From NCBI GenBank assembly GCA_000004985.1, contig GG738934.1: a stretch of DNA of 64,000 bases; one strand, written 5' to 3'. The stretch is from Naegleria gruberi. Taxonomy: Eukaryota. Below the pieces are notes generated by a model. It did not search any database and was not told the DNA's origin. It worked only from the letters and a program-made list of their open reading frames with translations. Position numbers and translations under genes: made by a program. Shown here piece by piece: positions 1,199 through 64,000 of this stretch (its first letter is position 1; each line of letters begins with the position of its first letter).

Positions 1199-1889
1199 TT
1201 TTTATGAATTGTTAATGTCAATTCCTTTCTCAATCTCCCATCATCAGCCAAATGTCTGATAATTAATTAAATAATAAACAGTAAGTACTAATAGAGACTT
1301 TCTATTTATTTAACCTCAACAATTAATTATCAAATCATTGAATAATGCTCGATCATTTGCATTCCTAACAATTATATTTCCTTGGCTGAATGAAATGGTC
1401 TTTCGCGTATTTTTGCCAATTCTCCCACCAAAGAAAATCTACAGTTGAATTTATTAATGTAAAATATAGAATTTTAAGAAATATTCAAAATATTGAACTT
1501 TACAACTTCACCTTCTTCAACACCCCAAACAAATCGCAATCTCTTCCATCAAACTTTCACAAATAATTATTACAAAAAAAAAATGTCATTCCAACCACGA
1601 ACAATTTAATTTCCAAATAATAGGGATATTTCAAGTAAGTTTTGTTTGAGATTATTTGATAATTAACCTTCAAAAGAATTGGAATTGACCAAGCTGGTAT
1701 TGGCAGACAAACTCATGCCGCACTACCACAACTCTAATACTCGCTCAATAAAATACAATTACAAAATGGATATTGAGTTTAACGACATGATTTTTCGAGT
1801 ACAGGTAGTAATAAAAGTTGAGTTTTAAATAAAGTTGAAAAAGAGAAAATGAAAGTTGAAATGCAAAATAATAATAAGTAATTCTGAAT

Positions 1890-1957
1890 GCGTCGACCGG
1901 GAATTGAACCCGGGTCACGGCGATGGCAACGTATTCTACCACTAAACCATCGACGCT
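1890..1957 (-). tRNA. tRNA-Gly(GCC)-like, copy 1. It has an apparent 3-nt deletion in the 5' half of the anticodon stem and is 68 nt long, not 71.
   Basis: Reverse complement reads GCGTCGA TG GTTT AGTGGTA GAAT A CG TTGCCAT CGCCG TGACC CGGGT TCAATTC CCGGG TCGACGC. The acceptor, D and T arms are canonical and the anticodon loop is TTGCCAT (GCC). The 5' anticodon stem is reduced to CG where copy 2 has CGGCG. Confidence 0.6.
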
Positions 1958-7518: not shown

Positions 7519-7940
7519 GTTGTTTAATTATGTACAAAAATATTGTTGTTTGGATGATCCGATATCGATCTCGATAGAATCTTCGTTAAAACTGTTTCTT
7601 GCTGATAGAGTTTGATGATGAAGAGAGATACTCTTATCGGGTGGTGATGATTTTGGCAGAGAGAAGATCCGTTGATAATTTTTTAAAAATATGAAGGAAC
7701 GAGTTCATTGTGTAATGCATAAGGTGAATGGGTTTTATGAGGAACATTTAAGAACTCCTTTATCCTTATGAAAACAATGAAAACTGATAGGGCATGGTAA
7801 CGTTGTTTGCTTATTGATAATTTGTGTAACGGTAATTTTTTCAAAAAATCAACAAATAAAAAATCATCACACGGCTTGTCGATACATTTTATCATTTTCT
7901 TTTTCTATTCTTCAGGTAGCTTGTTGTGGCATATGATTTA

Positions 7941-8750
7941 TTAAAGGAAGGAAATTTTGGACTCCAATTCTTCTGGTGTTGATTCTCTGCCCAAGATTGG
8001 ATTTCTGAAGGGGAATCTACCAAACTTTTCAATTAAGTCATGATGCATACGAGCATACTTGACAAAGTATTGGAAAAAGCCTTTTAAATCTTCAGGAGCC
8101 TCCTCTACCAACAATTCATACTCTTGAATACATTGTTCTTGGTTCATCAAATTCTCAGAATGTTCTAATGGTAACAAGAGGAAAATCTTCTCAAAAGTCT
8201 TGAAGGAATTATACAACTGTCTATCCGAGAGAATTCTCTTACTGATTGCCAAAGCATACATATCAAAGGAGTAACTCTCTGCCAATCCTCTGTACATATT
8301 TCTAGAGAATTGATCAAACAAAATGATCAAACTAATCATTCCCTTCGGAGAGGAGAACCATTCTGATGATTTTGTTAACTCTGCAAATACTTCCTCATTG
8401 AAAGTTGTTGATGAATTATCTTGAATTGTTGTCAACAACTTCTTGGCCATTTCTCTGCCCGAAATAGCCAAACTTTCATATTGCTCTTTAATATCAGAAT
8501 CAAGTTGTTTCTTCTGTTCGGGATCTTTTCCTGCTGAGAACCACACAGACATTGATTCTTTAATTCCATCAATTCTAACACGATGTTCATAGGCAGTAAT
8601 CTTGCCAAACCAGAAGGAGTAGACTCTTTCAATGTCTTCTGATGGTGATGATGCAATATGTTGAGACATTTTCTTTTGATTGTGGTTGTTGCAAGCTTGA
8701 TAAAGATTCTTTATCTCATCAAACAATAGAAAATCTATGCGTATTAACAC
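7941..8750 (-). CDS. DUF924-family protein (conserved protein of unknown function).
   Basis: C-terminal ..EKFGRFPFRNPILGRESTPEE.. matches the DUF924 hallmark (RFPHRNAILGRxSTxEE). Upstream helical region ..WFGK..; single ORF. The likely start is the internal MSQHIASS. Confidence 0.7.
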   Translation of the reverse strand: MLIRIDFLLFDEIKNLYQACNNHNQKKMSQHIASSPSEDIERVYSFWFGKITAYEHRVRIDGIKESMSVWFSAGKDPEQKKQLDSDIKEQYESLAISGREMAKKLLTTIQDNSSTTFNEEVFAELTKSSEWFSSPKGMISLIILFDQFSRNMYRGLAESYSFDMYALAISKRILSDRQLYNSFKTFEKIFLLLPLEHSENLMNQEQCIQEYELLVEEAPEDLKGFFQYFVKYARMHHDLIEKFGRFPFRNPILGRESTPEELESKISFL

Positions 8751-8989
8751 CGCATTTAGTCCGTGGTTAAACTTGACCTAAATGCATGATGATTTGAGAA
8801 AGGGCAGAAACTCTTTGTTTCTCCATCGATTCCTGAATAGCAACAGAACTTGAATTCTAAGGGATCATTCCTTAAATTGAACCCACTTGATTATTTATTC
8901 TACTCTCGGTTGTAAGTCACTGGTAATATATAATTCCAATAATATAATTTTGTAATATATTTTACAATAATTCATTGAAAGTAGATGAT

Positions 8990-9478
8990 TTACCAATCTC
9001 CTTCTGAGTGGAATACCAGGAAAAATATCCCACCAATGCCGTATGCATTAATTTCATATTCAAAACCTCCAAGATGACATTCGTACAATTCATGATATCT
9101 GAAAGCTTGTAATCTTCCAACCTTTTCACATAATTTCTCTAATTTCTTCATCATTGGCTTATGTTCTTCCGGATAACTAAGTGCTTCACGATCACTCATT
9201 GGTTTACCCTTGTCCATTCCTTTCATCAATGCAATTGTTTCAGTATTCAAAAGTTGTGGAACTTGATGATGGGGATGACAATAAACTCGAGTCTCATGTT
9301 TTGATTTGTAATCAACTGTTCGATAGTACGGATTCATCCGTTGAATACTCCACAGATAATTAAATAATTCATTGATTCGTATGGTGTGTAGTCGATGGGC
9401 TTGTTGTTGTCGGAATTTTGCAATCAAAAGTGGAGAAGATTGTAAATCGTTGAAAATCAAAACAACACACGATGACAT
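8990..9478 (-). CDS. Hypothetical 162-aa protein (His/Cys motifs CHPHHQ..YECH). Function unknown.
   Basis: Uninterrupted ORF with plausible codon usage, flanked by AT-rich intergenic DNA. No family recognised. Confidence 0.5.
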   Translation of the reverse strand: MSSCVVLIFNDLQSSPLLIAKFRQQQAHRLHTIRINELFNYLWSIQRMNPYYRTVDYKSKHETRVYCHPHHQVPQLLNTETIALMKGMDKGKPMSDREALSYPEEHKPMMKKLEKLCEKVGRLQAFRYHELYECHLGGFEYEINAYGIGGIFFLVFHSEGDW

Positions 9479-9793
9479 TTTTTAAAGATTTGTAACATTT
9501 TACAATTTATTATGAAACTAGAATGGGCAATTTCAATATTCACCTCATCATTTTACTTTAATATTGAGAAATTTGTTATTCTTTCAAAAATCATCACATG
9601 AAATTTACAACAAAATGTCACATTAGACCAACTGAACTATTTATGGCTCTCATTTCATTACACTCTTAGAGTTTTCACTGTGTAGCTTCATTATCAACAA
9701 ACATGAACCTCAAACAAGTTGACTTCCTTTCTGATGCCAGCTATCAAAGTCAATTGCCAAAATTAAATTGTTGCCCATAAGAAAAAAATTATC

Positions 9794-31377: not shown

Positions 31378-31487
31378 GACGGTGTAGCTCAGTGGTAGAG
31401 CAATGATTCAAAAATGATTTCTGTTCAGAGATCTAACTGCAACCAACCAAACTTCGTTGGTCGAGGGTTCGACCCCCTCCATCGTCA
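31378..31487 (+). tRNA. Intron-containing tRNA gene (~40-nt intervening sequence 3' of anticodon-loop position 37). Read conventionally the anticodon is CAA, but the body is class I (short variable loop), so the isotype is unresolved. Possibly a pseudogene.
   Basis: GACGGTG TA GCTC AGTGGTA GAGC AATGA TTCAAA [AATGATTTCTGTTCAGAGATCTAACTGCAACCAACCAAAC] T TCGTT GGTC GAGGG TTCGACC CCCTC CATCGTC A. The acceptor stem is 7 bp with one G-U. D arm, T arm (TTCGACC loop) and C61 are canonical. The anticodon stem AATGA/TCGTT forms only after removing the 40-nt insert. Position 26 appears to be missing. AATGATT is tandemly repeated at the exon/intron junction. Confidence 0.5.
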
Positions 31488-37610: not shown

Positions 37611-37693
37611 GCGTCGATGGTTTAGTGGTAGAATACGGCGTTGCCATCGCCGTGACCAGGGTTCAATTGTATGTTCAATTCCCGGTCGACGCA
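37611..37693 (+). pseudogene. tRNA-Gly(GCC)-like, copy 2. It carries a 12-nt tandem duplication in the T-loop and a C->A change in the T-stem, so it is a probable tRNA pseudogene. It is inverted relative to copy 1, about 35.7 kb away.
   Basis: GCGTCGA TG GTTT AGTGGTA GAAT A CGGCG TTGCCAT CGCCG TGACC AGGGT TCAATTGTATG TTCAATT CCCGG TCGACGC A. The anticodon arm is intact here. The T-arm reads CAGGG..ttcaattgtatg + ttcaattcccgg, where copy 1 has CCGGG TTCAATT CCCGG. The 5' flank gccttaataccttaacaagaa matches copy 1's flank gccttaatatcttaataagaa. Confidence 0.6.
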
Positions 37694-43282: not shown

Positions 43283-46200
43283 ATGNNNNNNNNNNNNNNN
43301 NNNNNNNNNNNNNNNNNNNNNNNNNNNNNNNNNNNATTTGAGAGCTCTCTTCAAACTAAAGTATTTGATAAAGAAATTGATGAAGAGCTTGTAAAATATG
43401 CTACATCCAAAAGGAATAGAATGTCTGCAAGTACTTTGATAATGAGTGCCATTTATACTTCAACCTTTCATGATAATCCTCAATTTTCTATTAATACTTT
43501 GAAATATGCGTTAAGACAAGCATCATTCGTTCAGAAAATAACCATCAACTCCAAGATTAAGGAAATTGAAGTTAGACACGGCTATCAAATGACAACCGAG
43601 TTTAGTACTATGCTGCTACAAGCTCAAAAGGTGGAAAATAGATTGCTAATGTTCAGAAAATTGTTTTGGCAATACTTTGTTAGCAATGAAGACGATCAAA
43701 ACAAAATTAACGCTATCGTTCATGCCATGTACAAAACTTTTGAGGAAGGAAAGGTAATTTATGACCTGCTAGTTGTTTCCAATCCTGAAAATCAAGTTCT
43801 AGCAAAAAAGAGAGCGTTATATTTTGATAATTTCTTATTTAGAAAGGTAATGACCAGTAAGAAGTCATCACCTTCTTTGAATAAGGAAGCTACTGGTGAG
43901 GATAGCAAATCGACAATTTCGAACAGGTCTACACAGAATCCAGAGGTAACAAAGAGCCAACAGGTACAAGTGAATGATCAAGCCCACGAATACACTGAAA
44001 AGGTGTACAGAGAGGCAATTAATACCAAGTTTACTATGAAACTAACCTTCCTATTTTTGATTTATGATGCCATTGCTCTGCTAGCTATTTCAGTTGGAAT
44101 AATTATTGGTGTAATCTCTTCTCTTCATGGAGATGAACTTGTAAGAATCTTACACGCCTGTCAATTCACTAATGTTCCGTATTCTCTATTGAGGGAAGTT
44201 AGATTGGCTTATTATTTTAGAAATGATCCTTCCACTTATAATTTTAACAATTTTTATGAAAGAATTACTGCTTTAAAGCACCTTACAGAAGATGGCAAAA
44301 TTAAAAGCTATTCACATCTTTCTGGAGATGCTTTAAACTATTACTCTGGGAATAACTTCCCAGTCATGGTACCCACAATTTCTGCTGATAATAGAGTATC
44401 CTATAAGTGGCAAAATGTATCAATTGCCTCCTTGATATCCGATATCGAAGTAGTTGTCAACAAGTTAAATTCATGGAATATTAACAGCTTCCAAAATTTA
44501 GAGAGCAATTATGAATATTTGTACCTCTCATTTAACCATGAATTAACATCTGGGTATATGGACCAGTATTGCCAGTCTCTCACAAATGGAGTGGTAAATC
44601 ACCCATACGATGAGGCAGTAATAGTCAACTCTGTTTTGTTAGGTCTACTTGTAGTAGCCACTGTTATTGTAATCGTATTACTAGCAACACTTAATATCAA
44701 AGAAAAGATAATCAGTCTCTTTTCAAAAATACCAAAAGATATTGTGGGAATTCTGAATATTGAGTTGGAAAAGCAAACTGATAAGAAGTGCGACAATAGC
44801 TCATACTCTGAAATATTTACATTCAAAGTGAAATTGTTGATGGTTCTTTTGGTAATATTTCTAGTTTGTGTTACTTCCTTATCAGTAACATTTTATGAAG
44901 CTTACAGTTTAGATTTCAGTTCTAGAAGCTCAACTTTAAAGCTTGGTTACATGTCTTCCCTACTGATAAATCTTCATAAGGATCAATTAATACTAGAAAA
45001 CAAGATTATTAATGGATCTAGCAATAGTTTGGGTTCTTCCAACAATGCTATTGAACGTTCATGGATCGTTTTTAGATATGGTAACCATAACTATCCAACA
45101 ACTTTACATTCTATATCAAGCAATGCCAAGTTCTTACTTGAAGGTAATAGTAGTTGTGGTACAATTAATTGCACAGGTCTTGATTCATTATTAGAGAAAT
45201 ATGTAATGAATATGGACTCTATTGCCTTCAGTACTAAATTGTCCAATTCCACTCTTGTAATGTTTTCCACCCTACTCTCTGCAATTTCAGCTAAGATACA
45301 TTCTCTTGGAGATGATTTAGTAGATCCAATAGTGGGTGTTCAAACCAAATTGGCTCTTGGTGTTTTCTCTGGAGCTTTTGTTTTGATATTGATTATTGCA
45401 GGATTACACTACGCAGAGCTGCGAGAATATGTTGATGAATGTAATCACACAAGAAGTATGCTTAGTATGATACCTTTTGATATAATTTCGCANNNNNNNN
45501 NNNNNNNNNNNNNNNNNNNNNNNNNNNNNNNNNNNNNNNNNNATATTTGGTGAAGGTCAAAACTCTGTTTCTTTAAAGGCAGTACTAGATAAGTTATTGG
45601 TTGCTACCGAATCTGCTGGAGAACATTTGGAATTGGAAGCAGTCAGAAAGAATGGCAGTTCTCTCTCAGTTGGTGTGTCCGTATCTGTTTTCCACCATGA
45701 AAATAAGAATCTAATTACAATGCTATTGAGGGATATTACTTTCGAAAAAAAGGTATGTTTTTGTCACCTAATTCTAATAATTGAATCATAATAATATTAT
45801 TATAATATTCCATTAAATAATCAATAGCACAAATTATTGCTGGCAGAGGAGAGGAAGAAAAGTGATAATCTACTATTGAACATTCTACCAGAACGTATTG
45901 CTCAAAGATTGAAAGCTGGTGAGACAAGTATCTCTGAAAAGTTTGATGATTGTACATGTCTGTTCAGTGATATGGTTGGTTTCACCAAAATGTCATCAGG
46001 TCTCACTGCCTATGAATTGGTGCAACTTCTCAATTCAATTATTAATGGTTTCGATTCTTATATTACCCCTCTCGGTTTGGAGAAGATCAAGACGATTGGA
46101 GATGCTTACTTTTGTGTAGGAGGACTGAATGGACAGACAGATCACCCGGAAAAAGTAATTACATTTGCCATTCACATGCTATCTGTCATTAATAACTACA

Positions 46201-47942
46201 ATACCAAGAACAATACCAAACTCAACATCAGGTAGGTTTTTCTCAATTTGATTTCATATCTAATTAATCATTAGAGTTGGAATCCACACTGGTCCAGTAA
46301 TTGCTGGTTGTATTGGCCAACAGAAATTTGCATATGATTTGTGGGGTGAAACTCTAATTATTGCCAATTGTACGTATTATTATAATTTTTGAAATTAAAT
46401 TATCATTCGTGTAAAGTGATGGAATCTAAGGGAGTACCAGGAAGAATTCAAGCATCAAGAAAGACCTATGAAAGAGTATATGATATTTTCGAATTTGAGG
46501 AAATCAAGGGAATTGAACTAAAACCATCAGTGCTCGTAAATACCTACTTACTCAAAGAGAAGCATCATGACATTAATACAAACTTTAGTGATGGATTTGA
46601 TAAAATGTTTGCAGGTCTCAATATGTTCAGTCCAAAAACCTATAACTTTTCCAAGATCATTCAAGACCGCTCTCTCATTCAAGGATTCAAGGATTTCTTC
46701 ACAGACTCTGAAAAGGTGAATATCATTAACTTTTACGAGTTGTGTCAAGAGTATGTGAGCTCTCCAATTCCAAGTCTTCGTTATAATATGGCAGAGAATA
46801 TGGTAAGAGATTACCTTGAAGAAACTGCTCCCAAAAGATTGCAATTAAAGTATGTGAAGAATGCTTTTGGCCCATTTCAAATGAAATTCAAGGACTGTAA
46901 TGATGATAATTGTCCTTCTGATTTATTTGAGAACTTCCAAAACCTATGTCTCAAAGTAAGTATTATTATTGTTGTTGTTCATCCAATCATTACAATTACT
47001 GTTGTACAATATTATAATATAACAATAATCCTTTTAAAGGCATTACGAGAAGAATTTCCAGCATTCATCAAGTCGAAGAATTTCAATAAGTTCTTGGAGC
47101 AAAAGAAACGTAACCCAGAACAGCTGAGACCTTATGTGAAGGATGAAAATGATGATGATGATGAGGATGATGAGAAGGCCTTCTTCAAGTTTTGTGAAAA
47201 GTGTGGAACTGAAATTATCAATTTGGAAAACCACCGTTTCAATGATTATGAATTTAACAATAGAAAGGAACTCTTGTTAGAGTTGAATCAGTGGAGTATT
47301 CACTTTGAGGGTAGTGGTGGTAAGACCTATATCAGTCCTGAGGTTGCTCACAACCATTTGAGTAATAGTAGAAGGCACGTTCAACTCAAGTATGTGTACG
47401 ATATGAATTGCAAACACAAGGACCTTTTCAATGCTTGGATTGATGAAAAATCCCTCTCAACACGAGTAGCACAATTAACCTCCTCCAAACATGTTGATTC
47501 TGTACAGGTTGGAAAGTACATGCACGTGGTTTGTCATGAAAACTTCAAGATGCCCTTCCCACGCTCCAAGAGAGAATTTGTTCATGCCTATTCTTGTTCT
47601 TACAATCCAAGTGAAGAAGTCTACATGTGTATATCACGTAGTATTAACAATCCGAGAGCACCTCCATCAAGACAAATTCGTGGAGAAATCAAGACTGCCT
47701 TCATGGTCAAAAAGTTGTCTGAAACCACTTGTAGATATTACTATTCTGTTATTATTGATTGCATGGGAATGCTCTCACCAGAGTATTATACCAAGAATAT
47801 TTACAAGGAAATTCAACAAGATTGTTTCCATGTCAATTTGGTTAAATTTGTTGATGAATTTGCAAAGGAAAATCGACAACCTTCCGGACCATTGGTAAAT
47901 TCACTCAATTATTATTTGGAACATCATGATAGTAGTAAATAA
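43283..47942 (+). CDS. Multi-TM receptor-type class III adenylyl-cyclase-like protein, C1-like subunit, with a C-terminal RGS domain and a further C-terminal domain. Exons: ..45752, 45828..46231, 46275..46369, 46417..46955, 47040..47942. Two 50-N gaps inside exon 1. The true 5' end is uncertain.
   Basis: TM segments: [80 protein letters not shown]: ..[43 protein letters not shown]. Cyclase: ..[56 protein letters not shown]|[31 protein letters not shown]|[14 protein letters not shown]..; both metal Asp plus Lys/Asp are present, and the Asn/Arg positions read I and L. RGS: [64 protein letters not shown]|[15 protein letters not shown]. Introns have GT..AG with consistent phases. Confidence 0.8.
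43286..43335. other. 50-N assembly gap inside the cyclase gene
   Basis: Exactly 50 N; conventional unknown-size gap. Confidence 0.99.
45493..45542. other. 50-N assembly gap inside the cyclase gene
   Basis: Exactly 50 N. Confidence 0.99.
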
Positions 47943-54066: not shown

Positions 54067-56223
54067 TTATGTATTTTGAAAGTATTCTTTAAGGATGAGA
54101 ATTTTAGATAAAATCTTATTGTTCTTAATCCTCTTTTTTAGGAAGGATGAAGAAAAGGTGATTGCAAATTTCCACAAACAGCTCGAATATTCTGATTGAT
54201 CAAAATCCAAAAGATTAATCATTTCCAAAATTAATTCCAATTCTTGCTTGTTTCCGTTCGAATTCATTACACACAATATTGCATAATGAAAGAGTTTTTC
54301 CATTTGGAAATGGTGAGCAGTTATGATGACAGAAACAAGTTCTGTAATTGTGAAATTCTCCATTGACATAATTATTTCTGGATTCAAAGAGCATACCAGA
54401 ATTATAAATCTTAAATGCTCGGTCATGTTGATATGTTGGTAAAACATGTCTGTTGAATTTTCTATCAGCATTTTCTGGAATTCGAATAAATCAATCAAAG
54501 GTTCATTTTCATCATTTTGAGAGATTAAGTGAGCAAATACTGGACTCGCCAATATTAATGATATTTTGTTAACTTTTAAAAGTTCAGTTTTTTCATGGTT
54601 AATAATTATCGAAACACTATGCTTTCTATCCAAATTTTCCAAGTATTCCTTATAAAGCAAGTTCAATGACTTTTCATTTGCTGTTTCGGTCCAATTAATG
54701 TCGTATATTTGAGATTTCTTTAATTTCTTTGAATTAATTATTTTTCTGATTGTACTCATCATATTTTTATCTTGGCATTTGACAGAATTTAAATTTTCTG
54801 AAGTGAAGGCAAGACATCTTCCCATCATTAAATTAATCAATTTACCATTAGGATAAAATTTTAACCATTTTGAAATAATTTCGATCATGATGCATACATT
54901 ATCTTCATTTAACTCTTCAACGAATAGTGAAAATAAATATTGTTTTAGAGATAGGCCAATATCTGAAATATTACCAAGTAATGCTAGTGCTGTTATGATA
55001 TTCTTAATAAGAGATTCTTTTAACATGTATTTGAATCGTTCCAATATATTTACAACGTTAGAATGTTCAAGATATTCATCACTATTCGAATTTGGGTATT
55101 GTGATAATTTGCATATGAGAATTATGAGTTCCTTAAAAATTATTATACTTTCTTCATCCAAATTGTCCAATAAATTGGTTTCACTAATCAAATTACTCAA
55201 ATCCCCAGTTATTAATTTGAGAAATTCCAAATTTACAAATAAATCAGTTGATCCCACTTGTGTGAAGTATTTCAATAATTTGTTTCTATCATCAATAATA
55301 GATTTTCCACAAATTATTGTTTCGGATATCATCTCTTTTGTATAGTTTCCAATTTCTTTGCTTGCTTTATGGTGTCGTATCAGAAAGCCAGTACTTAATC
55401 CAATAAGGTCAATTGAATCTCCTTCATCCCACTCAAATGGCAATTTTACAACATTTTCATTCGCCTTGCTGAAACTCAAATGACCGAATTTATCTTTACA
55501 AAATTCCAGAATTCTCCTTTTCGATGTTTTCAATAGCACAGAGTTGGTGCTCACTACAAAGTCATCAATTTTTTCTTGATTCTGCAAGCAAATTATCTCC
55601 TCTTCGTATCTGAATAGTTTCATTTCACCATCATACGTCAAAATAAGTAGAAATCGATTATTTAATAATTCTACCTTTTTAAAAGTATTCCAATGATATC
55701 TATACAAATCCAATGGGTGTAGGTACCCTCTTTCAATAATAGAATCCAATATTTTTTTCACTTTCGAATAACAATGTAATTCGGACACTGTATTTTTCAC
55801 ATCAAGTACTTTTTCTCGAGTATCCATCATGAAAATTCTTCCATTTCTTGTATGAAAATAAATGTTACATTCTCCAACATTATCCATTCGAATATCTACA
55901 ATTTCATCATCATCCTCCTTGTCTTTCAAAGATTTAACATTTGGCAATTTCGAATAACCCTTCACAACTAAACACCTTTCCGAATAAACAACAAAAGCGA
56001 AACCAGTCCTATCCAACATGGCAATGATCATTTCTCTACCAATAATTTTTACTAAATTATTGGGAAAATATTCAAGCAAGCCAACACACTCATGATTGAA
56101 TATTTTTGAATCACAAGAAGCCCATTGCGGTGGGAAGAATGTGGTGCCTCTGTAATAATATTCGTGCATTTTTTTTGGAATTTTTATCATGTCCAACAAA
56201 CTACAACTGGCAGGGGGGAACAA
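54067..56223 (-). CDS. Hypothetical 718-aa protein, largely alpha-helical repeat-like. Unknown function.
   Basis: Long uninterrupted ORF. The stop lies only 18 nt upstream of the F-box/LRR gene's ATG. No family recognised. Confidence 0.55.
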   Translation of the reverse strand: MFPPASCSLLDMIKIPKKMHEYYYRGTTFFPPQWASCDSKIFNHECVGLLEYFPNNLVKIIGREMIIAMLDRTGFAFVVYSERCLVVKGYSKLPNVKSLKDKEDDDEIVDIRMDNVGECNIYFHTRNGRIFMMDTREKVLDVKNTVSELHCYSKVKKILDSIIERGYLHPLDLYRYHWNTFKKVELLNNRFLLILTYDGEMKLFRYEEEIICLQNQEKIDDFVVSTNSVLLKTSKRRILEFCKDKFGHLSFSKANENVVKLPFEWDEGDSIDLIGLSTGFLIRHHKASKEIGNYTKEMISETIICGKSIIDDRNKLLKYFTQVGSTDLFVNLEFLKLITGDLSNLISETNLLDNLDEESIIIFKELIILICKLSQYPNSNSDEYLEHSNVVNILERFKYMLKESLIKNIITALALLGNISDIGLSLKQYLFSLFVEELNEDNVCIMIEIISKWLKFYPNGKLINLMMGRCLAFTSENLNSVKCQDKNMMSTIRKIINSKKLKKSQIYDINWTETANEKSLNLLYKEYLENLDRKHSVSIIINHEKTELLKVNKISLILASPVFAHLISQNDENEPLIDLFEFQKMLIENSTDMFYQHINMTEHLRFIILVCSLNPEIIMSMENFTITELVSVIITAHHFQMEKLFHYAILCVMNSNGNKQELELILEMINLLDFDQSEYSSCLWKFAITFSSSFLKKRIKNNKILSKILILKEYFQNT

Positions 56224-56733: not shown

Positions 56734-57941
56734 CTATTTTGATCTAGTGATTATCTTGTCAAATGAGCCATCTTTCATCTCCTTTCCATTAGAATCAACC
56801 ATTATAAATGATTTTTTCAAATCCTTAATAAGGTTGAAATGATTTTGAATGTTTCGAATAACATTTTCTTTACCAAATACATGCTCCAATATTTCTTTCA
56901 AAGCAAAAACATCTGCAGCTGCTGTATGTTGATTTTCAATCGATTGTTTAAATAATTGCTGATAAATATTTCCTAACTTGCATTGATTTTTCCCCAGTTT
57001 CAATGTTTTCTTCAAAATTGGGATTGTATCTAAGAAAATAAGGCGACTATTTTTCATTCCATCAGTAATCTTGGAATTGTTGATTCTCCAATGATTAAAT
57101 GCTCGATGTAGAACACTCTTATCGAATGGTGCATTATGAGCAAGAATTAATGATTTCTTTGGTAAAAAATCAATAATTAATTTCACTGCTTCCATTTCCT
57201 TGGTTCCATTTTGCACTAATTGATTAGTAATTCCTGTTAATATTTCAGCATCTCACGAGAGATTTTCACTCTAGGTAAAATATATTTTGGAAAGGATAAA
57301 GTTTCGTTAGTGGAGATATTGTAAATACAGCAATCTGTTGGTGCTCTTGTTTGAAGATCAGTTGTTTCAAAATCTAAAATCAGTACATCATATTCCTCAA
57401 TTGGTTCAATTAGATTACATTTGAATTGATGAGTTGTGCATCCACCATTATTAAGACAGCATTGTCTACATGATTTACAGGAAGCTTTTACAGCTTTTCT
57501 TCCCTTTCCACATTTACAAATTTGAGTTTTTGAATTGGATTTGGTTACTTTCTTAGGAGATGTGACTGAAATTGTTATATTTTGAGTGTTATTATTTTGA
57601 GATGGCTCTACACTATCAGATTCAATCATTATTTCATCTTCTTTTGGAGTCAATTTGAATTTTTCCAATCTGATTTTTCTTTTGAGCTCTTGATGAAGGG
57701 CATTAGTTAAATAGCATGAATTGACCATACAATCTGCTACTACTTTTGCCTTATCTGTAGAGCAATCATGTTTTGTTCGAAGGTGATTCAATAAATTCTT
57801 TCCAACTGCATAATTCTTTTGACATAAAGGACAAACTATTTGATCATTCTTATTACCAACCACATCTGTATCTTTTCTTAATGGAATTGAATCTTGTTTT
57901 ACATTAATAGTCTTAATTTTGGATTTCACAGTATCAATCAC
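56734..57941 (-). pseudogene. C2H2 zinc-finger / Cys-rich / DEDDh 3'-5' exonuclease gene disrupted by a frameshift between exonuclease motifs I and II.
   Basis: ORF 57941..57237 contains CPLCQKNYAVGKNLLNHLRTKH (C2H2), a Cys-rich block CKCGKGRKAVKASCKSCRQCCLNNGGC, and Exo I VLILDFETTDL. It then terminates. The downstream ORF 57216..56734 is in the -1 frame. It carries Exo II ..LILAHNAPFDKSVL.. and Exo III ..HTAAADVFAL... The 20 nt between them (TAA CAG GAA TTA CTA ATC AAT TAG) has no intron signal. Confidence 0.6.
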
Positions 57942-59620
57942 ATCTTTCGGAATATTAATGGTCTGTACATAATTGTCTGGTAATGGAGGAATGTCATCAA
58001 ATTCAATATTAAGTCTGGCATAATGTTCAGAAATTTTGAATTTTGGTAATGAAAATATTCGAGCAGATTCTGAAATATGGTGAGGGTAATATCTATCCTA
58101 ATAATCTAGCCAGCGATGGATTTTTAAATTTTCGTCAGATTAAATCAGATAAAAGTAGATTCGAGCAGATAAATATCCGACTTTATTCAGTTTTAATTGA
58201 ATAAATCCAGATAAATCCTATTATTGATTAGAAATATACCATTCATCATCTTCTGAATCTTGGTAAACTTCTACCCTTTCAAATGATTCAAAATTTTCAT
58301 ATAGCCAGTGAAATTGGTTGCTGACATCAATTAGTTTACCTCCTTTACCTTTCATAAAGGTTCACAAATAAAATGCTTGTGGGGCTTCATTAATTGAAAT
58401 CCTTCTTTGAAATACAGCTTTCTTTCCAACTATTGTAACCATTTGGTGAATAATATGGTAATAAGTTTGTTTTCTATCTTTTTTAATGATGCATTCACCT
58501 AGTTCAATATAACCATTAATTTCAGATTCTATAACTCCAATACACGTTGACTTGATTGTCGTGATGTGTCTGAAACTTTATATCTTGTAGATATAAATCT
58601 CTTTTGCCTATTGGCATCCTGTTTTGATTTTTCAATATTAAAAAAATTATTAACCACTTTGTGGATTTTCATTTCATATTCAGAATCAGCTGATAAATTG
58701 AAATATGCACCTGTCTGTGAAGAGGTTTTCCTTATTTTCTTTTCTAGGCATATTTCTTCATTCTCAAATATTAATTGTGTATCCTTTTCAATCTTATAAA
58801 ATTGATTCTTTTCAATCTCTGAAAATTTTGTAAACTTGTAATCTTCATTCCAAAGTGAATATCCACAAAATGAATTACAACATGTTGATAATAACTTGAT
58901 GAGAGAAATATCTTTAAATTCCGAATCCAATTTTTTGTAAAGAGTTGTTGTTTTTTCAAATTCTTCTGTAATGATGAAGTGAATATGTTTTGATGATGGA
59001 AAATTATCAAACACCTCTAAATCTGATATAGTTAAAGGTGTATCATCAAAAATGGCATTATATTTTGAAGGTTTGGTGTTTTGGAAGCATGTTTCACTTA
59101 ATTGTTCTTCTATTAATTGAGAAACAACTCTGATAAACTCTTTATAATTTAAATTCCGCTTGTTTCCATAAAATCCTCTGGCTTCACTAAATAAATTCTC
59201 TAAATAATATTCTTGCAGCTTAAAAGGAAGCAATCTAGTATTTGAATTTCTACACTTGTCCATAAGTAATGTTAATCCTATCACTTGTTGAAAAACAGCA
59301 TTTAGTGTCTCAGTTGACCAAGAGTGATCAGGAATTCTATAAACGTGTCTTTGGGTTCCATCTTCATCTTCTTCAGTAAGAGTTCTAACTTTGTAGTTTT
59401 GAAATAAAAAGAAAAAGAATGATCTCCATCCATATCTCAATCTTTGGTGGTGAGTTAATTTTTTTTGTTGAATGGATCTTGTTAAATATCCAATATGATT
59501 CAAAACATAATACACAGCACTGGCATTTTGTTCTAATAAATTCAAAACTGCATCACTAATGAGAAAATTAGCTCTGGAATGATTTTTTTCGTTATCTAAA
59601 AATCCAGAAGGAAATGTCAA
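57942..59620 (-). pseudogene. Decayed coding region upstream of, and probably belonging to the same former gene as, the exonuclease locus. There is an intact 363-aa ORF at 59620..58529, then about 590 nt with multiple in-frame stops and frameshifts.
   Basis: Minus-strand translation of 58528..57942 stays protein-like but is interrupted by several stops. The last segment is in frame with MIDTVKSKIK of the zinc-finger ORF. Short cagataaa repeats occur at 58140-58210. Confidence 0.4.
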
Positions 59621-59804
59621 CTCTAGGTATTGACTTCTATTAAAATAGAGATCCCAAATATCTTGAATAATGCATGGTGTTGTACCAATTGATATTAATC
59701 TGCGCTCTTAAAACATCATTATTTATAAGACTTCATATACATCAATATATATCATTAGATAGGAAATGCTCACGGCTACATGATGATATATAATTTTAAT
59801 ATGT

Positions 59805-59827
59805 GTTGGGTTTGGGTTTGGGTATGG
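59805..59827 (+). repeat. Interstitial telomere-like repeat (GTTGGGTTTGGGTTTGGGTATGG)
   Basis: About three units of the same GGGTTT hexamer that forms the terminal array. It lies about 210 bp before the large gap. Confidence 0.7.
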
Positions 59828-60037
59828 CGAAAACCTATTCTCATAAAATGAACCACTAATATTGGCTATCCAGTTATTATATATGTATTACTATATAAAA
59901 TAATCTATCTATTCTGTAATACACGTGAAAAAACTCCCCGTAGTTATTGAGATAATCAAAAATGGTCAACTCAAAAATTCCTAGTATATCTATTATCTCT
60001 GCGACGAGAACGTTCCGGGTTATGATCACTCAAAATC

Positions 60038-62974
60038 NNNNNNNNNNNNNNNNNNNNNNNNNNNNNNNNNNNNNNNNNNNNNNNNNNNNNNNNNNNNNNN
60101 NNNNNNNNNNNNNNNNNNNNNNNNNNNNNNNNNNNNNNNNNNNNNNNNNNNNNNNNNNNNNNNNNNNNNNNNNNNNNNNNNNNNNNNNNNNNNNNNNNNN
60201 NNNNNNNNNNNNNNNNNNNNNNNNNNNNNNNNNNNNNNNNNNNNNNNNNNNNNNNNNNNNNNNNNNNNNNNNNNNNNNNNNNNNNNNNNNNNNNNNNNNN
60301 NNNNNNNNNNNNNNNNNNNNNNNNNNNNNNNNNNNNNNNNNNNNNNNNNNNNNNNNNNNNNNNNNNNNNNNNNNNNNNNNNNNNNNNNNNNNNNNNNNNN
60401 NNNNNNNNNNNNNNNNNNNNNNNNNNNNNNNNNNNNNNNNNNNNNNNNNNNNNNNNNNNNNNNNNNNNNNNNNNNNNNNNNNNNNNNNNNNNNNNNNNNN
60501 NNNNNNNNNNNNNNNNNNNNNNNNNNNNNNNNNNNNNNNNNNNNNNNNNNNNNNNNNNNNNNNNNNNNNNNNNNNNNNNNNNNNNNNNNNNNNNNNNNNN
60601 NNNNNNNNNNNNNNNNNNNNNNNNNNNNNNNNNNNNNNNNNNNNNNNNNNNNNNNNNNNNNNNNNNNNNNNNNNNNNNNNNNNNNNNNNNNNNNNNNNNN
60701 NNNNNNNNNNNNNNNNNNNNNNNNNNNNNNNNNNNNNNNNNNNNNNNNNNNNNNNNNNNNNNNNNNNNNNNNNNNNNNNNNNNNNNNNNNNNNNNNNNNN
60801 NNNNNNNNNNNNNNNNNNNNNNNNNNNNNNNNNNNNNNNNNNNNNNNNNNNNNNNNNNNNNNNNNNNNNNNNNNNNNNNNNNNNNNNNNNNNNNNNNNNN
60901 NNNNNNNNNNNNNNNNNNNNNNNNNNNNNNNNNNNNNNNNNNNNNNNNNNNNNNNNNNNNNNNNNNNNNNNNNNNNNNNNNNNNNNNNNNNNNNNNNNNN
61001 NNNNNNNNNNNNNNNNNNNNNNNNNNNNNNNNNNNNNNNNNNNNNNNNNNNNNNNNNNNNNNNNNNNNNNNNNNNNNNNNNNNNNNNNNNNNNNNNNNNN
61101 NNNNNNNNNNNNNNNNNNNNNNNNNNNNNNNNNNNNNNNNNNNNNNNNNNNNNNNNNNNNNNNNNNNNNNNNNNNNNNNNNNNNNNNNNNNNNNNNNNNN
61201 NNNNNNNNNNNNNNNNNNNNNNNNNNNNNNNNNNNNNNNNNNNNNNNNNNNNNNNNNNNNNNNNNNNNNNNNNNNNNNNNNNNNNNNNNNNNNNNNNNNN
61301 NNNNNNNNNNNNNNNNNNNNNNNNNNNNNNNNNNNNNNNNNNNNNNNNNNNNNNNNNNNNNNNNNNNNNNNNNNNNNNNNNNNNNNNNNNNNNNNNNNNN
61401 NNNNNNNNNNNNNNNNNNNNNNNNNNNNNNNNNNNNNNNNNNNNNNNNNNNNNNNNNNNNNNNNNNNNNNNNNNNNNNNNNNNNNNNNNNNNNNNNNNNN
61501 NNNNNNNNNNNNNNNNNNNNNNNNNNNNNNNNNNNNNNNNNNNNNNNNNNNNNNNNNNNNNNNNNNNNNNNNNNNNNNNNNNNNNNNNNNNNNNNNNNNN
61601 NNNNNNNNNNNNNNNNNNNNNNNNNNNNNNNNNNNNNNNNNNNNNNNNNNNNNNNNNNNNNNNNNNNNNNNNNNNNNNNNNNNNNNNNNNNNNNNNNNNN
61701 NNNNNNNNNNNNNNNNNNNNNNNNNNNNNNNNNNNNNNNNNNNNNNNNNNNNNNNNNNNNNNNNNNNNNNNNNNNNNNNNNNNNNNNNNNNNNNNNNNNN
61801 NNNNNNNNNNNNNNNNNNNNNNNNNNNNNNNNNNNNNNNNNNNNNNNNNNNNNNNNNNNNNNNNNNNNNNNNNNNNNNNNNNNNNNNNNNNNNNNNNNNN
61901 NNNNNNNNNNNNNNNNNNNNNNNNNNNNNNNNNNNNNNNNNNNNNNNNNNNNNNNNNNNNNNNNNNNNNNNNNNNNNNNNNNNNNNNNNNNNNNNNNNNN
62001 NNNNNNNNNNNNNNNNNNNNNNNNNNNNNNNNNNNNNNNNNNNNNNNNNNNNNNNNNNNNNNNNNNNNNNNNNNNNNNNNNNNNNNNNNNNNNNNNNNNN
62101 NNNNNNNNNNNNNNNNNNNNNNNNNNNNNNNNNNNNNNNNNNNNNNNNNNNNNNNNNNNNNNNNNNNNNNNNNNNNNNNNNNNNNNNNNNNNNNNNNNNN
62201 NNNNNNNNNNNNNNNNNNNNNNNNNNNNNNNNNNNNNNNNNNNNNNNNNNNNNNNNNNNNNNNNNNNNNNNNNNNNNNNNNNNNNNNNNNNNNNNNNNNN
62301 NNNNNNNNNNNNNNNNNNNNNNNNNNNNNNNNNNNNNNNNNNNNNNNNNNNNNNNNNNNNNNNNNNNNNNNNNNNNNNNNNNNNNNNNNNNNNNNNNNNN
62401 NNNNNNNNNNNNNNNNNNNNNNNNNNNNNNNNNNNNNNNNNNNNNNNNNNNNNNNNNNNNNNNNNNNNNNNNNNNNNNNNNNNNNNNNNNNNNNNNNNNN
62501 NNNNNNNNNNNNNNNNNNNNNNNNNNNNNNNNNNNNNNNNNNNNNNNNNNNNNNNNNNNNNNNNNNNNNNNNNNNNNNNNNNNNNNNNNNNNNNNNNNNN
62601 NNNNNNNNNNNNNNNNNNNNNNNNNNNNNNNNNNNNNNNNNNNNNNNNNNNNNNNNNNNNNNNNNNNNNNNNNNNNNNNNNNNNNNNNNNNNNNNNNNNN
62701 NNNNNNNNNNNNNNNNNNNNNNNNNNNNNNNNNNNNNNNNNNNNNNNNNNNNNNNNNNNNNNNNNNNNNNNNNNNNNNNNNNNNNNNNNNNNNNNNNNNN
62801 NNNNNNNNNNNNNNNNNNNNNNNNNNNNNNNNNNNNNNNNNNNNNNNNNNNNNNNNNNNNNNNNNNNNNNNNNNNNNNNNNNNNNNNNNNNNNNNNNNNN
62901 NNNNNNNNNNNNNNNNNNNNNNNNNNNNNNNNNNNNNNNNNNNNNNNNNNNNNNNNNNNNNNNNNNNNNNNNNN
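60038..62974. other. 2937-N assembly gap in the subtelomere
   Basis: Continuous N run. ORFs reported across it are artifacts. Confidence 0.99.
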
Positions 62975-63775
62975 CAATGGTATCAACAGTTATATGATTC
63001 ATGATAGTTTAAAATTGCGTTGGTCATCTAAGGATAGGTCATTAAGGTTTGAATGAATTGATATGAAATTCAATACCAATTATTGATATACCATGATTTA
63101 TTGATCTATATATGATATTATAATTGAAATATTTTAAAATTAATATCATTTGACTATTTTGACATTCATAATTCTCATGATTACACTCCTGACATGTTGG
63201 ATGATTTCATATTGTCTTGAAACTGATATACTAGTGTTTGTACACCACTAGTAAGGTACTGTATCAGTTTCATGATGATCTGTATAGTGGATGTAATTGT
63301 CACATCCCTGTAGGTGTCAAGTAGATCAGCCAAGTACCATGTATGATATGGATGATCTTCAAAATCAAATAGATATATTTAATTATCATGTATAGATGTA
63401 TTAGAAGTGAATTGAAGTGGAAAAGATTTCTATCTTCAGTGTTAGTATAGGTCAGTTGACAAGTTGAATAGTAAACATCCTGAAATGATACCAAAGTATT
63501 TGAAATTGATATATATTGTTATTAACATGATTTAAAAGGTGATATATTGATTTGAAATGATTTTGAAATGTTTTCATTGATATTCTAATTGTCTAATCTA
63601 TTATATGAAATTAACTTATATAAGTCATTATAATGATGTAATATTATGTTATATTATGATTATATATTCAATTTGGAGTATATTGATATATAATATATTG
63701 ATTTATAATGAGTATTTATTGAGATAATTAATTAAGAAGAATAAAAGTCAAAAGGTTGGGTCTGACCTTAGTCGT
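62975..63775. repeat. AT-rich, gene-free telomere-associated sequence with short local direct repeats
   Basis: No credible ORF. Repeated motifs such as tatgatatggatgatc, atatattgat and ttatgttatattatgattatat. It ends in the degenerate telomere-like ggttgggtctgacc just before the array. Confidence 0.6.
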
Positions 63776-64000
63776 GGGTTTGGGTTTGGGTTTGGGTTTG
63801 GGTTTGGGTTTGGGTTTGGGTTTGGGTTTGGGTTTGGGTTTGGGTTTGGGTTTGGGTTTGGGTTTGGGTTTGGGTTTGGGTTTGGGTTTGGGTTTGGGTT
63901 TGGGTTTGGGTTTGGGTTTGGGTTTGGGTTTGGGTTTGGGTTTGGGTTTGGGTTTGGGTTTGGGTTTGGGTTTGGGTTTGGGTTTGGGTTTGGGTTTGGG
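63776..64000 (+). repeat. Telomeric repeat array (GGGTTT)n = (TTTGGG)n. The G-rich strand runs 5'->3' toward the window end, so this is the chromosome terminus.
   Basis: About 37 perfect tandem hexamers continuing to the last base of the window. Confidence 0.9.

Follow-up and report, generated by a model that had tools for sequence, protein, structure and literature searches.

The 64,000-nucleotide stretch of DNA from the amoeboflagellate Naegleria gruberi analyzed here (contig GG738934.1 of assembly GCA_000004985.1, hereafter the window) most probably, at a likelihood we put near 85%, constitutes the last 64 kb of a nuclear scaffold and ends in a genuine chromosome-end telomere built of TTTGGG, an uncommon telomere unit. 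Naegleria belongs to the deep eukaryotic branch Discoba, in which, to our knowledge, telomere biology is almost unstudied. The array occupies the final 226 bp of the window. Tandem Repeats Finder (TRF) assigned it a period of 6 and 37.7 copies, all positions matching (100%) and free of indels, and direct reading followed GGGTTT on the plus strand through base 64000, with the G-rich strand running 5' to 3' toward the end. Compared with the 18-mer TTGGGTTTGGGTTTGGGT, the array contained 35 in-register matches, 34 of which were exact. Neither TTGGGG nor any other variant unit was found in the array by TRF or by direct reading, and GGGGTT hexamers occurred only 4 times in the whole window; the array therefore does not display the interspersion of TTGGGG with TTTGGG that characterizes Paramecium telomeres. 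It does display a short G/T-rich tandem unit and an outward G strand, both typical of telomerase-type (TnAmGo) repeats, and the transition from the preceding DNA is abrupt (...CCTTAGTCGT followed directly by GGGTTT). The original prediction, made by a model from the letters of this stretch, had announced a perfect GGGTTT array at the window end with its G strand pointing outward, and both TRF and direct reading bore this out. Its statement that TTTGGG differs by one base per unit from TTAGGG, TTTAGGG and TTGGGG is arithmetically correct, and its interpretation of the array as a telomere is supported by the repeat type, the homogeneity, the outward G strand and the position at the window end.

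The correspondence between window end and scaffold end was deduced from the position of the window relative to annotated genes. Two open reading frames (ORFs) in the window were residue-identical to EFC36247.1 (NAEGRDRAFT_76096) and EFC36246.1 (NAEGRDRAFT_76095), N. gruberi proteins encoded on a 97,622-bp contig, and two further genes matched N. gruberi proteins of the same contig (P0003 and P0015 in our numbering). The window begins within an N run, and the locus tags 76095 to 76099 increase in the direction of the array. Since a scaffold cannot start in an N run, the tags rise toward the array and a random cut falling within 226 bp is very unlikely, we infer that the window represents the last 64 kb of this 97,622-bp N. 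gruberi scaffold, with the array at its end.

A TTTGGG telomere had already been proposed for N. gruberi. After screening 143 genome assemblies, either published or open to the public, in silico for repeats of the TnAmGo type, Fulneckova et al. (2013, Genome Biol Evol 5:468; PMC3622300) reported TTTGGG as the candidate telomere repeat of this species. Candidates were selected based on position and orientation, and N. gruberi was among the genomes with a convincing terminal pattern (PMC3622300). In the strict sense the repeat remains a candidate, and the survey authors themselves state that experiments are still needed (PMC3622300). The original prediction had presented the unusual repeat as noteworthy for inference of the telomerase template; the repeat is real, but it was already published in 2013 (PMC3622300). 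The literature searched yielded no later study of telomeres, TERT or the telomerase RNA in Naegleria. Experimental proof is still needed, and a further detection in an assembly accessible at the time of the 2013 survey does not supply it.

Reading inward from the array, the window contains an 800-bp telomere-adjacent sequence (TAS), a 2.9-kb gap, 210 bp of unique DNA, a short interstitial telomere-like tract, approximately 100 bp of further sequence and a minus-strand gene relic (Table 1). The gene-poor subtelomere proximal to the array thus extends over approximately 4 kb, 2.9 kb of which is unsequenced. Two further elements of the original prediction, a gene-free AT-rich TAS and a gap of 2.9 kb, were confirmed. 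The GC content of the TAS (25.6%) is lower than that of other non-ORF DNA in the window (29.5%) and of ORF-covered DNA (34.2%), no frame exceeds 72 codons, and no internal repeat structure was found in it, only short low-complexity repeats. The window overall has 33% GC and the standard genetic code, and ORFs of at least 120 codons cover 82% of it. From the irregular length of the gap (2,937 N), unlike that of the two 50-N gaps present elsewhere in the window, we infer that it reflects a size estimate and not a placeholder; as the original prediction proposed, it may hide repetitive subtelomeric sequence. The 210 bp between the gap and the interstitial tract contained no repeats and did not resemble the protein family of the relic, and the visible distal sequence had neither a copy within the window nor a match among the 120 metagenome loci described below.

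Table 1. Features of the distal part of the window, from the window end inward.
Feature	Position	Strand	Basis and remarks
Terminal telomere array, (GGGTTT)37.7	63775..64000	+	TRF period 6, score 452; direct reading
TAS, 800 bp, unique, ORF-free, AT-rich	62975..63774		GC 25.6%; longest open frame 72 codons
Scaffold gap, 2,937 N	60038..62974		N-run listing
Unique, non-coding-looking DNA, 210 bp	59828..60037		GC 31%; sole open frame 50 codons
Interstitial telomere-like tract	59806..59827	+	Exact 18-nt TTGGGTTTGGGTTTGGGT at 59806-59823, then degenerate ATGG
5'-truncated, frame-shifted relic of a ~770-914-aa family	58257..59707	-	phmmer, alignment, tblastn
Zinc-finger (BED/C2H2-like) and DEDDh (RNase_T) exonuclease gene	56737..58097	-	Pfam; most distal gene of ordinary appearance

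The interstitial tract and the truncated relic

The original prediction had also placed a three-unit interstitial tract just before the gap, and an exact 18-nt copy of the repeat was indeed found there. The tract shares its strand with the terminal array and lies approximately 3.95 kb inside it. A search of both strands of the window for the 18-mer, tolerating at most 3 mismatches, detected this site and the terminal array only, compared with a mean of 0.06 matches at the same tolerance in dinucleotide shuffles. Outside the tract and the array, the window contained no telomere-permuted k-mers of at least 10 nt, and shorter ones were about as frequent as expected (8 observed versus 8.0 expected for 8-mers, 1 versus 2.0 for 9-mers). 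Given the shuffle mean and an expected count of 0.02 for a telomere 12-mer, a chance origin of the tract was rejected. As a short co-oriented tract between a proximal and a distal subtelomeric segment, it has the appearance of a block junction.

On the proximal side of the tract, homology to a protein family starts within approximately 100 bp, at a breakpoint at 59704. The corresponding open frame spans 59707-58532 on the minus strand. A phmmer search with this frame among 1.84 billion representative sequences retrieved P0003, four metagenomic or uncultured-eukaryote proteins of 770-914 aa (P0005-P0008, E 1e-19 to 1e-5) and fragmentary proteins of N. lovaniensis. The relic aligns to residues ~276/311-690 of P0005-P0008, so that the first ~275-310 residues of the family are missing. 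Using tblastn, the main relic block was located at 59704 to 58535 and the C-terminal end of the family in another frame, at 58373-58257, while nothing similar to the N-terminal ~300 residues was found in 59705-60037 or in the TAS. The missing N-terminus and the frame change before the C-terminus identify this locus as a 5'-truncated, frame-shifted relic. P0003 corresponds to the JGI model NAEGRDRAFT_76099 (EFC36269.1, 696 aa), which, mapped onto the window (56737-59526, minus strand), splices the relic to the neighboring zinc-finger/DEDDh-exonuclease gene. This model is probably chimeric, joining a relic of an unrelated ~800-aa family to the exonuclease gene. A word-indexed homologue search with the 363-aa relic ORF returned nothing, though P0003 is present in that database and is 97-100% identical to the relic ORF over ~280 residues; negatives from this search therefore need to be read with care.

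Full-length members of the family are found on short environmental or uncultured-eukaryote contigs (P0005-P0008; L121, L122), and both N. gruberi and N. lovaniensis harbor fragments only. In N. lovaniensis the family is present as three fragments of 128-249 aa, located internally on three contigs (L123-L125), a pattern which fits a decayed dispersed repeat. No TTTGGG tract was found in the two N. lovaniensis loci scanned (L123 and L124). L125 (PYSW02000037.1) also carries, at 7613-9511 on the minus strand and approximately 500 bp from the relic-family fragment, a gene for 360 aa whose product matches Pfam OrfB_IS605 (TnpB/Fanzor-like) weakly. The family has conserved motifs (D..D..(PDxRHLxRN)..LQEYxxENFYS). 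It may represent a decayed DDE-type mobile element, a suggestion that found no support among database or fold matches. More specifically, the LQEYxxENF(Y/F)S motif and an RNase H-like order of strands and helices in a predicted model prompted the idea of a P-element/THAP9-like DDE transposase. Membership in that group, which would show in a significant match to its RNase H, insertion or C-terminal domain, was unsupported by Pfam, PDB and Foldseek, and we keep the idea only as a lead. Pfam returned nothing for the relic ORF or P0005-P0008, the sole trace being a weak match to PF21789 (E=0.06) in one N. lovaniensis fragment. PDB sequence and profile searches with the relic family were empty, and Foldseek, run with a poor AlphaFold2 model (pLDDT 47), gave no match at E<=0.001.

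Because the tract is non-random, co-oriented with the terminal array and approximately 100 bp from the relic breakpoint, we tentatively prefer to see in it the scar of an old break healed by telomere addition, now forming a junction between subtelomeric blocks, although we would not put this at even odds. In this scenario, a break inside the ancestor of the relic would have been healed by telomere addition, and the healed end would later have been extended, through recombination or break-induced replication, by the distal ~4 kb that it carries today. Three points weigh against it: the healed break is read from position alone, the gap could contain the 5' part that the relic lacks, and telomerase can insert short telomere tracts in the course of ordinary double-strand-break repair. 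Insertion of this kind at an internal break, or else replication slippage, is the main competing explanation. Telomerase insertion has been proposed as the source of short interstitial telomeric sequences in mammals, and Nergadze and colleagues reportedly documented the mechanism for vertebrates in 2004 and 2007; the tract itself consists of just three units with unique sequence on both flanks. On the other hand, only ~4 kb separate the tract from the true end, its orientation matches that of the terminal array, and the relic is truncated within ~100 bp of it; de novo slippage is implausible, since even a 12-mer has so low an expected count. We give this explanation somewhat less weight than the healed break. 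A bolder version of the healed-break scenario would make the tract a former chromosome end, arisen from a healed break in a mobile-element copy, and the distal ~4 kb, most of which falls within the gap, a Y'-like element common to N. gruberi chromosome ends. We consider this version unlikely; if true, it would be the first description of heterolobosean subtelomere architecture and telomere healing. The tract beside the truncated relic provides a small testable hint on the remodelling of Naegleria subtelomeres.

TTTGGG arrays in environmental contigs and rival readings of the terminal array

Scanning metagenomes for (GGGTTT)6 yielded 120 loci, none of which showed similarity to the window at the DNA or protein level. 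Among arrays located at most 40 bp from the locus end, 26 pointed outward and 10 inward. Outward arrays at many environmental contig ends indicate that environmental eukaryotes, too, use TTTGGG as an end repeat, which says nothing direct on Naegleria. Low-GC contigs with outward arrays included seven from JAESGV01, all of them outward (L005, L028, L029, L040, L054, L078 and L080), one from VFQO01 (L077) and five others (L007, L084, L085, L106 and L120); a few TTGGGG-like units were present in the arrays of L007, L084 and L085. In all 8 contigs tested (L005, L007, L029, L040, L077, L078, L080 and L106), reading TGA as the only stop codon raised ORF length several-fold. This gain suggests that many of the outward low-GC contigs are ciliate macronuclear chromosomes with TTTGGG-dominated telomeres. 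A different arrangement was found at the end of L051 (Ga0163111_10301227, 62% GC), where TTAGGG repeats become degenerate (CTAGGG, GTAGGG, TGAGGG) and give way to six TTTGGG units and then to GGGTCA units. This is a mixed-variant telomere-like array of a GC-rich organism.

Two aspects of the assembly weigh against taking the window end for a chromosome end: the array is terminal by virtue of its assembly position alone, as judged from sequence, and together with the TAS it forms a contig of 1,026 bp that is tied to the scaffold solely across the 2.9-kb gap. The array might be a TTTGGG satellite in the chromosome interior, or an extended interstitial telomeric block, at which the Sanger assembly broke while the chromosome continues. 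Assemblers also break at long simple repeats, many genomes carry internal telomeric blocks as well (PMC3622300), and 10 of the 36 terminally placed metagenome arrays point inward, so that such arrays are not always telomeres. However, the array is perfectly homogeneous and of correct polarity, an ORF-free AT-rich stretch precedes it, a relic and a putative orphan gene lie nearby, and the 2013 survey judged the terminal pattern of N. gruberi convincing (PMC3622300); we consider an internal satellite highly improbable. The telomere could also be real and its contig misplaced, that is, derived from another end or an alternative haplotype and joined by mate pairs across the gap. The small size of that contig and the 2,937 N between it and the remainder would permit this, and subtelomeres are often common to several ends and confuse mate-pair scaffolding. 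Yet the irregular gap length suggests, without proving, placement by spanning clones, and the proximal side already resembles a subtelomere, with its co-oriented tract, gene relic and gene without homologue beyond N. gruberi, leaving misplacement improbable. Finally, contamination from a ciliate would account for the repeat itself, as TTTGGG is contained in Paramecium telomeres (PMC5855555, PMC13085455) and terminates the ciliate-like metagenome contigs described above. Paramecium arrays are mixed, whereas not one TTGGGG was found in 37.7 repeats here; moreover, the interstitial tract places co-oriented TTTGGG units within the main Naegleria contig itself, and the 2013 survey described TTTGGG at terminal positions of the N. 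gruberi assembly (PMC3622300). The probability of such contamination is negligible in our estimate. None of these three alternatives is favoured over a genuine TTTGGG telomere.

Neighboring genes in the window

The gene nearest to the relic carries a Pfam RNase_T match (E 3.8e-9) and a zf-BED match that stays below the curated cut-off (E 9e-4). Further inward, at 54067-56223 on the minus strand and 7.5 kb from the telomere, a 718-codon ORF is annotated as a 700-aa predicted protein (P0015). No Pfam domain was detected in it, and the word-indexed search, covering 5.8 billion proteins, returned no homologue beyond N. gruberi; by these searches it appears to be an orphan gene. The two 50-N gaps mentioned above (43286-43335 and 45493-45542), taken for fixed-length placeholders, break a large membrane guanylate/adenylate-cyclase gene whose Guanylate_cyc domain is located at 45837-46235. 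Rfam reported three tRNA matches. Those at 1889-1956 (minus strand) and 37611-37693 (plus strand) are inverted copies of tRNA-Gly GCC, as called by ARAGORN, with flanks 96-97% identical and approximately 35.6 kb apart. The third, at 31378-31487 on the plus strand, spans 110 nt without an ARAGORN call and may contain an intron.

Comparison with known telomere systems

According to general telomere biology, telomerase would extend the 3' end of the G strand on an RNA template corresponding to a CCCAAA permutation of ~1.5 repeats (a 9-11-nt permutation of CCCAAACCCAAA), the C strand would then be filled in, and the array would be capped by telomere-binding proteins. The unit TTTGGG constrains the template to such a permutation and could guide the search for the telomerase RNA. 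The original prediction had proposed a search of this kind; confined to the 64-kb window, it produced no candidate, with k-mers at chance level and only tRNAs among the Rfam matches. Among known systems, the macronuclear and micronuclear telomeres of Paramecium, TTGGG(G/T), have in common with the Naegleria array the TTTGGG hexamer, a telomerase-type array and an outward G strand. Paramecium arrays mix TTGGGG and TTTGGG, and this mixing has been explained by one template on which misincorporation or stuttering occurs (PMC5855555, PMC13085455). The Naegleria array, in contrast, consists of TTTGGG throughout its 37.7 units, and the two lineages (Heterolobosea and Ciliophora) are unrelated. The absence of TTGGGG units argues for a Naegleria template that would encode TTTGGG directly, and not for misincorporation of the Paramecium type.

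TTAGGG has been inferred to be ancestral for Excavata (PMC3622300). Telomeres of this type and the TTGGGG telomeres of Tetrahymena share with the Naegleria array a six-nt unit of the TnAmGo class, a block of three to four G, the overall architecture and the polarity. A single substitution separates the Naegleria unit from each of them: T takes the place of the A in TTAGGG and of a G in TTGGGG. As for the interstitial tract, short internal telomere tracts occur at the X/Y' junctions of yeast and at the boundaries of human subtelomeric blocks. The similarity lies in a co-oriented short tract a few kb inside the telomere, separating a gene-bearing proximal part from a gene-poor distal part. Unlike in yeast Y' elements, no Y'-like ORF is visible in the distal ~4 kb of the Naegleria end, of which 2.9 kb is gap.

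Compared with the N. gruberi candidate of 2013, the organism, the unit and the type of evidence (terminal position and orientation in an assembly) are the same, and nothing essential differs. What is new here is the anatomy of one end, a minor detail: to the 2013 record are added a perfect array of 226 bp, an 800-bp TAS, a 2.9-kb gap and, above all, an interstitial tract adjoining a truncated relic.

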